The translations under genes and the position numbers were made by a program. A model generated the notes under the pieces. That model saw only the letters and a list, made by a program, of their open reading frames with translations, had not been told where the DNA came from and ran no database searches. This document shows, one piece after another, positions 8,778-64,000 of a stretch of 64,000 bases of DNA (positions within the stretch are counted from its first letter, which is position 1; each line of letters begins with the position of its first letter). This stretch comes from Octopus vulgaris (lineage: Eukaryota), in assembly GCA_951406725.2 (NCBI GenBank), contig OX597814.1, forward strand, positions 103,788,001 to 103,852,000, given 5' to 3'.

Positions 8778-9026
8778 TTAATAAAAATGGTAAGATAACA
8801 AAAGAATGAAAGAGACCCCGATATTATGTAAATAGAGGAATTTATCTGTAAAAGTAATATGTAACAGTTTTTCGGTAGCCATGATAAAACTCCGAGTTTC
8901 GGATGCCGAGGTGGAAATCCACGTCGCCACCTCATCAGTTATCTGGCCATCGGAAAAATCTCGGCTTCCGTAACTTGGAGTTTTATCATGGCTAACGAAT
9001 AATTGTCACATATTACTTTTACAGAT
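8778..9026 (-). mobile_element. foldback hammerhead element, family H1
   Basis: Inserted in (TA)n; 8844-8898 is inverted at 8972-9026; homologous to 12965-13125 and 63628-63915. Confidence 0.8.
8877..8948 (-). ncRNA. type I hammerhead ribozyme, canonical core
   Basis: GGCCA-GAUAA-CUGAUGA-[GGUGGCGACGUGGAUUUCCACCUCGGCAUCC]-GAAA-CU-CGG-AG-UU^UUAUC-A-UGGCU; predicted cleavage between 8888 and 8887. Confidence 0.85.
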
Positions 9027-9448
9027 ACACACACACACAGATAGATATATATATATATATATATTTACACACACACACGCACACACACACACACATATAT
9101 ATATATATATATATATATATATATATATATATATATATATATATATATATATACACATACACACACACACACACACATATATATATATATATATATATAT
9201 ATATATATATATATACACACACACACATATATATATATATATATATATATATATATATATAAATACGAATATAATATTGTTCGTGTATGTGTGTGTATGT
9301 CTGTACATATGTACATACGTACACACACACACATACATACATATATACACCTAAATAGAGAAAAATAAATAGAAGAAAATTTTATAAAATGTGTGAAAGA
9401 TAGAGAACAGATTAGAATGTGTATTTGATTGCATTGATACGGTCTTCA

Positions 9449-9560
9449 TATATACACTCGTTTATATGTAGGCAGGTGTCTAGCTATATACACTCGTTTA
9501 TAGGTTGACAGGTGTGTAGCTATATACACTCGCTTACATTTAGGCAGGTGCATGGCAGCT
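9449..9560. repeat. 36-bp minisatellite, 3 copies
   Basis: Unit TATATACACTCGTTTATATGTAGGCAGGTGTCTAGC. Confidence 0.8.
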
Positions 9561-10086
9561 ATCAAATGTAAGCGTATATTCCTTCAATAAAAACCATTTA
9601 CCTTACCAGTGAAAATTTGTATAAATACTTGTGTGTATGTGTGTGTGTGTGTGTGTGTGTGCCTGTGTAATATATGTACGTGTGTGTATGTTTGTATGTA
9701 TATGTGTGTGTGTATGTATATATATAAATATATATACATACATTTGTATTTTATTTTTGTACTATATATATATATGTATACACACACACACTCATCTCAG
9801 CTGATAAGGCGAGATGAGTTTATCTCTAGGCGCGGTGGAAGCCACTGGTGAGCGTTAAGATGCGTTAAGCGTCAAAATGCGAAATCATTGATGATCTGGT
9901 TCTATCTGTGACTGTAGGGAGCTTGTCCCCTTGTCAGCTCATTAAGATAGTGTTTGGTGTGGCTATTGAGTTGTTTTGACTCTTATTTCTAGCAATACTG
10001 GTGCAGATTGGTGTCCGTTCTTCACTTTACAAACATGTTTCTGCCTTTAGGTTATAAATCTGCGAATTAGCCACCCATATCATATA

Positions 10087-10225
10087 TGGCTGTGTGGTAC
10101 GTAGCTTGCTTACCAACCATATCGTTCTGGGTTCAGTCCTACTGCGTGACACCTTGGGCAAGTGTCTCCTACTATAGCCATGTGAGTGGATTTGGTTGAC
10201 GGAAACTGAAAGAAGCCCGTCGTAT
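10087..10225 (+). mobile_element. SINE family A, 5' part
   Basis: Homology to 4340-4500. Confidence 0.85.
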
Positions 10226-10493
10226 ATATATATATATATATATATATGTGTGTGTGTGTGTGTGTGTGTGTGTGTGTGTATCAACAAATACCTGATGTAT
10301 ACTATACGGTTTATTATCTAATAATAATGACTTCATACATACATACATACACACACACACACACACACACACATATATATATATATATATATATATATAT
10401 ATATATATAACCATGCATATATATACTTACGAATACGTATATATATATATATATATATATATATATATATATATATATAAAATAAAAAACAAC

Positions 10494-10722
10494 AAATAAC
10501 AATAGATTACGGTTTACTACAGCTGTTTCACACATTTTTTTTATTGATGAACAAAAGTGATACAGCATGCATAAAAAACGTTAGAAAACGGGTAAGAATG
10601 AAACATTGTGAACATCATAAGAACAAGTACAAAGTACCATTTGACTCTGCTGACCCAAATTAGTACCGCCGATAAAAAGCACACCTGAAACAGCTGTAGT
10701 GAACCGTAATCTGTTGTTATTT
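10494..10722. mobile_element. inverted-repeat element with hammerhead 3' halves (GAAACAGCTGTA)
   Basis: 37-bp arms at 10494-10530 and 10686-10722 with 2 mismatches; symmetry starts at TGAAA-CAGCTG-TA. Confidence 0.7.
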
Positions 10723-10977
10723 ACTTATCTTTCATCTGACTCGGAACCTGGATCTAGAGTCTAATTGAGTGCAGTGCAATAGGTGCAGTGAGTGTATCCA
10801 TGTGTGACCATGACAATTCGTTGTGCATTCAGTCCGCCATTTGTGATTGAACACACAACCGGAGTACAAATCTGTGTTTCCTTTAGTAAGTACGTATTCG
10901 TCCTTAAATATTGTTTGTACACAATACCGTTATCACCTGATTGTCTTGAATCCTGGAAATTTTTACATACATATGAG

Positions 10978-11259
10978 AAATAAGGATAAACACAAGTTTA
11001 TATTAAAGTTCCTACGCGCGTTTCACCATTATGGTTGTTTGGAACCCTGTGAAAGAAGTTCCAAAGGCATGTAGATGCTGAACCAGAACGATTACTCAGG
11101 GAACCATTTATTGCATTAAATTACTATAAGGTGTTCCCTGGAGGATCGTTCTGGTTCAACACTCAAATGTATTTGGAACTTCTGTGGCAAGGCACAAAAC
11201 TACCATAATGGTGAAACGCGCATAGGAACTTTAATATAAACTTGTGCTTATCGTTATTT
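10978..11259. mobile_element. foldback element with two divergent long-stem-II hammerhead motifs, family H2
   Basis: Arms of about 127 bp; minus 11008-11104 GUUCC-CUGAGUA-[68 nt]-GAAA-CGCGCG-UA-GGAAC; plus 11133-11229 GUUCC-CUGGAGG-[68 nt]-GAAA-CGCGCA-UA-GGAAC. Confidence 0.75.
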
Positions 11260-11404
11260 TGCTTCCATTTACTCTGTAGTTCATAACTGGTAACACCATT
11301 CAGGATAGAATTTATTTAACAACTCTACAAGTCTGGATTAGGATAATCTACGTGAAGCTCTAAACATAACAGTAGCAGTCATACATTTTTCTACACACAA
11401 TCTC

Positions 11405-62800: not shown

Positions 62801-62982
62801 CTTGTACACACACACACACACACACACAAATATATATATATATATATATATATATATATATATATATATATATATATATATATATATATATATATATATT
62901 AATTAATTAGGGTAGAAATTGATATTAGTCAATTAAAACCAGTGGTCTAGCATATTAAAAAGAATCCGAAGATTAAAATATT

Positions 62983-63347
62983 TATATATACCAATTAAGG
63001 ACTGAACACGAAAAGTGGACAGTCAACATGCTAGATATAGACGTCAAATCGCCATTCTCCACAAAGGTTATGTTCTCAAAAAATAAAATTCAGCACAAAC
63101 CAAAGCAATAAATAAGACAAATGAAAATATACGAAATGAAATAATCACCTGTGTACCGATCGGTTTCAGTACCGATCGGTACACAGGTGATTATTTCATT
63201 TCGTATATTTTCATTTGTCTTATTTATTGCTTTGGTTTGTGCTGAATTTTATTTTTTGAGAACATAACCTTTGTGGAGAATTTTGACGTCTATATCTAGC
63301 ATGTTGACTGTCCACTTTTCGTGTTCAGTCCTTAATTGGTATATATA
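62983..63347. mobile_element. near-perfect 365-bp palindrome centred on a hammerhead stem III, family H4
   Basis: Arms at 62983-63164 and 63171-63347 with one 5-bp indel; axis ACCGATCGGT-TTCAGT-ACCGATCGGT; minus strand reads GAAA-CCGAUCGG-UA. Confidence 0.85.
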
Positions 63348-63354
63348 TACATAT

Positions 63355-63600
63355 ATATATAACGGGAAGGTTTATGAAAAGAAACAAAAGACGAAGGCAG
63401 GTGGAGTACAAACAAACAAATGTATTAGTATAGCGCTCAGGAATAGAAAAAGTCTTTTACGTTTCGAGCCTACGCTCTTCGACAGAAAGTTACACTGAAA
63501 AAAACAAGGAGAGAAAAAAATGCGTGTAGTGGCTAACGATCTATCATGGCGTCCTGACTTCGGACAGTGGTCAGACGCGAGAGGGACAGTAGGGGAGATA
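63355..63600 (-). mobile_element. PLE pLTR-like repeat with CUGUCGA hammerhead (63452-63489)
   Basis: CUUU-CUGUCGA-A-GAGC-GUAG-GCUC-GAAA-CG-UA-AAAG; homologous to 1570-1780. Confidence 0.78.
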
Positions 63601-63657
63601 AAAGGGTCAAGTGACTTCCAATATATATGTAAATATAATATGTGACAATTATTCGGT

Positions 63658-63729
63658 AGCCATGATAAAATTCCGAGTTTCGGATGTCGGGGCGGAAACC
63701 CACACCGCCATCTCTTCAGTTATCGGGCC
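63658..63729 (-). ncRNA. type I hammerhead, family H1, left arm
   Basis: GAUAA-CUGAAGA-GAUG..CAUCC-GAAA-CUCGGAA-UU-UUAUC; one stem III mismatch. Confidence 0.72.
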
Positions 63730-63745
63730 ATCGAAAAATGCTTAA

Positions 63746-63819
63746 TGGCACGATAACTGAAGAGATGGTGGCGTGGGTTTCCGCCCCGAAATCCGAAACT
63801 CGGAGTTTTATTATGGCTA
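63746..63819 (+). ncRNA. type I hammerhead, family H1, right arm
   Basis: GAUAA-CUGAAGA(63757-63763)-stem II-GAAA(63795-63798)-CU-CGG-AG-UU^UUAUU; predicted cleavage after 63807. Confidence 0.8.
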
Positions 63820-64000
63820 CCGAATAATTGTCACATATTATATTTACAGATAAATTCCTCTATTTACATAAGGCCGAGGTCTCTTTCATTCTTTTGTTGT
63901 CTTACCATTTCTATCAATATCTATGTATCTCTCTCTCTCTCTCTCTCTCTCTCTCTCTCTCTTATATATATATATATATATATATATATATATATATATA

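Follow-up and report, generated by a model that had tools for sequence, protein, structure and literature searches.

A 64,000-nt stretch of the Octopus vulgaris genome (assembly GCA_951406725.2, contig OX597814.1, positions 103,788,001 to 103,852,000 of the forward strand; hereafter the window) contains a series of short hairpin-like repeats, which raises the question of what they are and why their two arms meet where they do. The genome is that of an animal, 2.8 Gb in size and rich in microsatellites. A preliminary description had reported six inverted repeats, and all six were confirmed where it placed them: A (8778-9027), B (10494-10722), C (10978-11259), D (50535-50779), E (62983-63347) and F (63620-63856). 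It had read them as retro-derived products that would be mistaken for miniature inverted-repeat transposable elements (MITEs), with inverted symmetry beginning at the stem III palindrome of a hammerhead ribozyme. The first part of this reading is upheld, the second fails as a general rule. We conclude that the hairpins derive from the 3′ termini of Penelope-like elements (PLEs) with a hammerhead, each being a separate insertion into (TA)n of two copies placed head-to-head, one of which has a tail. A and F belong to one family (A/F), with two different junctions within the window. Throughout, signed positions (e.g. -11) count from the predicted hammerhead cut site, and the random sample comprises 140 ten-kb stretches (1.4 Mb), chosen blind except for four flanking the window.

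A head-to-head inverted truncated copy, a one-sided tail and a bias towards microsatellites are hallmarks of PLEs (PMC8557442, PMC3846280, PMC2377424). Among assigned rows of the random sample, 63 foldbacks were head-to-head versus 9 tail-to-tail, several of the latter stemming from a contaminated reference that was later excluded. The tail was found on one arm only in 52 of 63 foldbacks, and a short arm was paired with a tail-bearing arm in 18/20 of the A/F hairpins centred on stem III. A microsatellite adjoins the short end in 40/51 cases and the tail end in 42/51, these being raw counts without a background rate. Junctions are locus-specific, with 83 distinct among 85. A search for the target-site duplications (TSDs) expected of a transposase, as the preliminary description had proposed, gave one non-microsatellite candidate in 51, TA duplications being unscorable in (TA)n flanks. 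Moreover, the random sample contains 95 tight foldbacks, and hammerhead families supply at least 33 of them.

A link to PLE coding sequence, as had been anticipated, stands for family D and probably for A/F. At locus L301 the D terminus follows the end of a GIY-YIG open reading frame (ORF; above the Pfam cut-off, E 1e-5), with a 1.1-kb repeat-rich spacer between the two, and this upstream context is common to L301, L299 and L069. A full ORF with reverse transcriptase (RT) and endonuclease (EN) was not recovered for D. Family 8 terminates an RT-bearing (RVT_1) ORF in L184. The A/F terminus follows one and the same ORF end in four loci (L044, L290, L292 and L293). The A/F-linked ORF fragments had no Pfam hit, and there is only 83% DNA identity to a fragment carrying a sub-threshold GIY-YIG match. 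The full A/F parent was not recovered at L293, which holds only ORF ends in a large inverted duplication.

All five families behind A-F carry a predicted type I hammerhead. By a strict descriptor, predicted intact type I hammerheads within the window are confined to A and F, and putative full hammerheads of B, C, D and E were seen in other genomic copies. The descriptor matched 57 times in 1.4 Mb versus 0 in shuffled sequence, and hammerhead matches fall into 40 clusters across all sequence examined. An Rfam scan returned no hammerhead among the 150 matches listed, which were microsatellite-driven miRNA. In stem I of family E, a compensatory pair occurs in 10 copies (9 + 1) versus 21, among 33. 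The core of family D is a natural G3:C8 swap of the C3-G8 pair, and core and stem I are exact in 22/33 (material for this swap: window 50630-50680, L084 and L294-L301). Judged from sequence, the E pair and the D core would both support ribozyme function. Several other families use a U3:A8 core, as does the family 8 copy at about 28190-28230 (minus strand) of the window.

Copies of family D stop at a sharp edge, an AG 60 nt before the cut site. Of 1363 D copies, 100 were listed: the parental sequence goes on upstream in 28 of these, and the other 72 break off before the parent's upstream region, ending within 2 nt of the AG in 64 cases and a few bases past it in 8. These and the palindrome classes below were scored by eye. 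Next to the AG, 28 of the 64 show a G that the parent lacks and 4 a different base that it lacks, and in 6 listed copies the non-parental G lies directly against (TA)n. Similar AG edges were seen in a few copies of families 4, 14, C and A/F. An untemplated G has been taken as a mark of the cap in L1 and SVA (PMC4859970) and an internal promoter is known for Penelope (PMC2377424). From the extra 5′ G and that promoter, the D template was likely a capped, uncleaved transcript.

To map where arms meet, 384 distinct foldbacks were reduced to 140 mapped rows and 85 kept for junction counts; some automatic family references proved self-inverted or contaminated and were trimmed or excluded. Inner boundaries of the 85 fall downstream (14), between GAAA and the cut (10), in stem II (20), in the core and stem I (22), 9-30 nt upstream of the core (15) or further upstream (4). 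As arm ends per 100 nt at risk, the rates over these zones are 0.44, 0.72, 0.93, 2.54, 4.08 and 2.16, respectively. The 120 arms that were not query-selected give, in the same zone order, 0.44, 0.38, 0.94, 2.59, 4.27 and 2.44, and the order of rates is the same in 46 arms from the random sample. Thus the stem III zone has an end rate 3.5-6 times lower than the zone at or just upstream of the core, and a rate not above that of stem II (p=0.52) or downstream (p=0.23).

Genome-wide counts of tight hairpins (exact pattern matches with an inner span of at most 30 nt) agree. Family D has 769 of them immediately 5′ of the core, as opposed to 9 at the cut site and 11 in a control placed downstream; family 14 gave 630 upstream of the core versus 38 at the cut site; and A/F gave 116 versus 52. 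Upstream counts are thus 2 to 85 times those at the cut site. Junction inserts are 0-1 nt in 66/85, often with microhomology. Within the upstream class, 16 hairpins of D and 17 of family 14, each among 50 matches listed, are centred on short palindromes. Within the cut-site class, stem III is the exact centre of 22 A/F hairpins among 50 matches listed (1.2 expected), of 5/38 in family 14 (0.9 expected, p=0.002) and of 1/9 in D, and by a rough estimate the stem III-centred hairpins make up 3-4% of A/F foldbacks. The claim that palindromes matter at the junction is therefore sound, whilst a stem III axis is established for A/F and weakly for family 14. The general rule is a palindrome near where copies stop, of which stem III is one case: being itself palindromic, it serves A/F as a real though minor axis.

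How, then, do the two arms arise? The arm reaching further 5′ is the short arm in 19 foldbacks and the tail arm in 22, with 11 ties. At L044 the short arm is 1.37 kb longer than the tail arm, and both arm-length orders occur even in the young family E. Moreover, the unpaired central base of 18 perfect one-tail stem III hairpins comes from the tail arm in 8 and the short arm in 10. With fold-back of one cDNA, the second arm should be nested within the first, and all 18 central bases should come from the tail arm if its cDNA alone had folded (18:0). The simple RT fold-back of the preliminary description is disfavoured because the arms are not nested, while its suggestion of a mechanism shared by unrelated families is supported. 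With modest confidence, the non-nested arms and the 8:10 central base favour two separately primed cDNAs over one folded cDNA.

We propose that the PLE protein would cut both strands of AT-rich DNA. One DNA end would then prime at the inner RT start site to give the short arm and the other at the outer site to give the tail arm, both on RNA of the same source. The template would be a short, capped transcript whose start lies some 5-25 nt before stem I; both cDNAs would read through its uncleaved ribozyme and end at the cap, or fall off earlier. Head-to-head annealing of the two near-identical cDNA tips would be limited to palindromes or short inverted matches, and the axis would thus snap to a palindrome near the stops, mostly just upstream of stem I and sometimes in stem III. 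In vitro, the PLE protein PAc, a predicted dimer, cuts both strands, extends each of them and begins reverse transcription at two sites that bound the tail (PMC11167929). We lean, narrowly, towards the reading in which PLE inverted repeats form by such double priming (one cDNA per cut strand and per RT start site, templated by a capped, uncleaved RNA whose start lies shortly before the hammerhead, with tips joined at palindromes) and in which a large share of the hairpins in this genome (the 33 or more of 95 tight foldbacks sampled) are one-off, MITE-like products that never moved as DNA.

The alternative that survives best, which we consider possible but doubtful, is that one cDNA or an antisense template folds at a palindrome and self-primes the second arm, an endonuclease trims one tail, and later flips or deletions scramble which arm is longer. 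Self-priming has been proposed by Arkhipova et al. 2013 (PMC3846280), who read palindromes at PLE inverted junctions in this way, and the tail has been ascribed to EN-mediated resolution (PMC8557442). The palindrome-centred classes of D, family 14 and A/F would suit this route, as would the concordance of subfamily between the two arms. It needs extra events to account for the 19:22 non-nested arms and the 8:10 central base, even in young E. Moreover, arms are only modestly closer to each other than to unrelated copies (8.3% vs 11.6% in A/F, 6.2% vs 7.5% in D), and this modest likeness argues against frequent recombination between arms.

Several observations weigh against double priming on a capped transcript and against the generality of our map. 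The two arms share subfamily alleles in 38/44 informative cases (by eye; about 23% expected), and divergence between arms within a locus is below that between loci in all five families. Fold-back also predicts this, so the two cDNAs must use one RNA or one active source. A later spacer flip or central deletion could give non-nested arms, an objection countered only indirectly, by arms that are not homogenised. In the PAc study (PMC11167929) the start site did not differ between strands, which on its own leaves the coupling of one short with one tail arm unexplained. Arms of family E do not pile up upstream of the core (0/14), nor do those of family B (4/18), and no ORF link was found for B, C or E. 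Before counting, 55 of the 140 mapped rows were excluded, namely 7 elements of the window, 8 E loci that were complex or distant, 12 rows that mapped poorly and 28 others with no usable junction or an unreliable family reference. Lastly, the AG of family D resembles a 3′ splice site and is preceded by a branch-like motif and a pyrimidine tract, and an intron of D. virilis ends at helix I (PMC4209133), making an acceptor site an alternative explanation of the edge. A spliced-exon origin of the D 5′ end was considered and rejected, as the 100 listed copies have no upstream exon in common. A look for RNA evidence, with contigs aligned to a copy of D, showed neither a transcript start or end nor a splice joint. 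Whether cap or acceptor, most templates kept the whole ribozyme, in agreement with the use of unprocessed RNA by the PLE protein in vitro (PMC11167929).

Far less probable is the earlier version of events, in which every family turns at stem III or at the end left by self-cleavage of the RNA. It had been claimed that symmetry begins at GAAA plus a palindromic stem III in four of these families; when shorter-arm starts were mapped on natural family copies, this held cleanly for E alone. In E the tail-bearing copy (62902-63170, minus strand, -17 to +255) meets a short copy (63171-63354, plus strand) that starts at -11 in stem III and ends at +178. A perfect stem III palindrome lies in both arms at 63154-63181, an allele absent from 33 full-hammerhead E copies and possibly corrected during joining. 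For D, the tail-bearing copy (50489-50680, minus strand, -57 to +143, with the G3:C8 core-variant hammerhead) faces a short copy (50684-50779, plus strand, to +90). Its start maps best to -8, as claimed for 50684, and by eye can equally be read as a junction at -57 after which the right arm lost an internal piece. In B, a GAAA start at 10686 is borne out by self-alignment and not by comparison with a family copy, against which the 3′-long copy (10667-10937, plus strand) matches from about -32; its partner is a short-ended copy (10487-10663, minus strand, -149 to +32) with a decayed hammerhead.

For A, the proposed start at 8972 did not stand. Symmetry is present 12 nt earlier, from 8960, at -23 in the 3′ strand of stem II, where the short copy begins (8960-9027, plus strand, to +45). 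The tail-bearing copy (8781-8958, minus strand) spans -71 to +107, its tail at 8781-8842 having no partner arm, and holds the predicted intact type I hammerhead at 8883-8943 (minus strand; core 8938, predicted cut after 8888). Duplication of the whole ribozyme in C and F was correctly described. The left copy of C (10973-11124, minus strand) has its 5′ end at -110 and a whole, decayed hammerhead with a long stem II, and the right copy (11126-11259, plus strand) ends 5′ at -97. F joins a short A/F copy (63620-63742, minus strand, -76 to +49, whole hammerhead) to a tail-bearing copy (63745-63915, plus strand, -63 to +108) with a predicted intact hammerhead (core 63757, predicted cut after 63807).

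Beyond the window, the case for a stem III turn lies in the sharp classes centred there in A/F and family 14 and in family E, which genome-wide gave two hairpins at a span of 14-40 (the window and C17), with nearly the same junction (-11/-12) in different subfamilies. A peak of arm ends at the cut site, with 8 of 170 arms between -4 and +1, was too weak to claim. E gave 0 hairpins at a span of 0-13, that is, exactly centred, and 0 in the control. Families C and B likewise gave 0 tight hairpins at the cut site, zeros that weigh little since copies of these old families are only about 80% identical. Only 10/85 inner boundaries lie in the stem III zone, and the D counts at the cut site do not rise above the control. 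The template was not cleaved there, since the ribozyme is complete in most arms. Other stem III palindrome words, which occur 12 times in the window, do not stand out as a class, since 50 shuffles gave a mean of 7.7 and a maximum of 14, and the site cited at 7716-7727 has no intact core and no second copy in the approximately 1.9 Mb searched. Stem III as a turning point is thus refuted as a general rule and remains a minor class, a few percent of A/F.

That the hairpins are DNA MITEs moved by a DDE transposase, or fixed hairpin units amplified as such, is scarcely credible: TA flanks compatible with TA target duplication and some junctions recurring identically at palindromes would fit, but the outer ends are asymmetric with a tail on one side, the 83 distinct junctions show no uniform structure, the same termini run on into GIY-YIG or RT ORFs and a lone candidate has a TSD outside microsatellites.

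Further features of the window were observed. A solo truncated A/F copy lies at 12962-13119 (minus strand). Foldback J (18760-18870) has one arm beginning inside a stem III-like palindrome, and its core was not found. Foldback H (49122-49587) has a near-intact minus-strand hammerhead and a shorter arm whose start lies at -11 to -19, and 34028-34357 is a foldback of yet another hammerhead family with 26-bp arms. At 16990-17130 an inverted pair of an abundant SINE-like repeat, with no hammerhead, forms a foldback of a different kind. Elsewhere, L184 (G000:C9:60010001-60020000) holds at 820-7708 a young (99.9%) head-to-head PLE with a 632-aa RT-bearing ORF and its junction within the ORF; small foldbacks of other families are repeated on both sides. 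L293 (G000:C17:79836001-79845500) contains a stretch duplicated in inverted orientation, at least 9 kb long and with about 97% identity, that includes the A/F-linked ORF ends and LINE fragments. At L294:45-761 the spacer found upstream of D abuts, in the same orientation, an ORF fragment from another PLE lineage, which suggests a template switch between PLE RNAs. Partial tandems that repeat a unit of some 507 nt also occur in family E (L006, L011, L018-L021), as in a non-LTR retrozyme; none were seen for A/F, B, C or D.

The structure itself is already known, and the octopus hairpins are new, very short and very numerous members. EN+ PLEs (Craig et al. 2021, PMC8557442; Arkhipova et al. 2013, PMC3846280) likewise have an inverted truncated copy, a tail at one end, microsatellite bias, junction palindromes, microhomology joins and a hammerhead in the terminal repeat. 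In contrast to these, both octopus copies are mostly 60-300 nt and ORF-less, hence the MITE look, tails measure 53-77 nt, or about 220 in B, as against 30-40, and thousands of copies permit junction mapping. The Poseidon PAc protein (Frangieh et al. 2024, PMC11167929) resembles our proposal in its two RT starts bounding the tail, cutting and extension of both strands and use of unprocessed RNA. The available text of that study leaves the formation of inverted copies unexplained, the step that the genomic data here address. Hammerheads of PLEs (Cervera and de la Pena 2014, PMC4209133) and of non-LTR retrozymes (bioRxiv 10.64898/2026.07.22.740005) are also type I with a palindromic helix III, an extra stem II base, a U3-A8 core and opposite-strand motif pairs 100-700 bp apart, and the E tandems resemble retrozymes. 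Unlike retrozymes, most families here are dispersed head-to-head pairs rather than tandem arrays, and D has a G3:C8 core. In L1 twin priming the two cDNAs span adjacent parts of the RNA, whereas those proposed here would overlap almost fully and give a hairpin. Shared by L1 twin priming and our proposal are the priming of cDNA by both target strands and the joining of the products with small indels (PMC4859970).

The origin of tandem and inverted PLE structures has been described as undefined (PMC8557442), and a junction map, a cap signature or a two-cDNA argument for PLEs was not found in the open-licence papers searched. Here, thousands of tiny independent insertions per family make junction position, nesting and the origin of the central base countable. 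Taken together, these counts favour a two-cDNA model in which the template is capped and uncleaved, and they speak against ribozyme cleavage having produced the 5′ end. For annotation practice, hairpin repeats of this kind should be labelled as PLE ends rather than MITEs.

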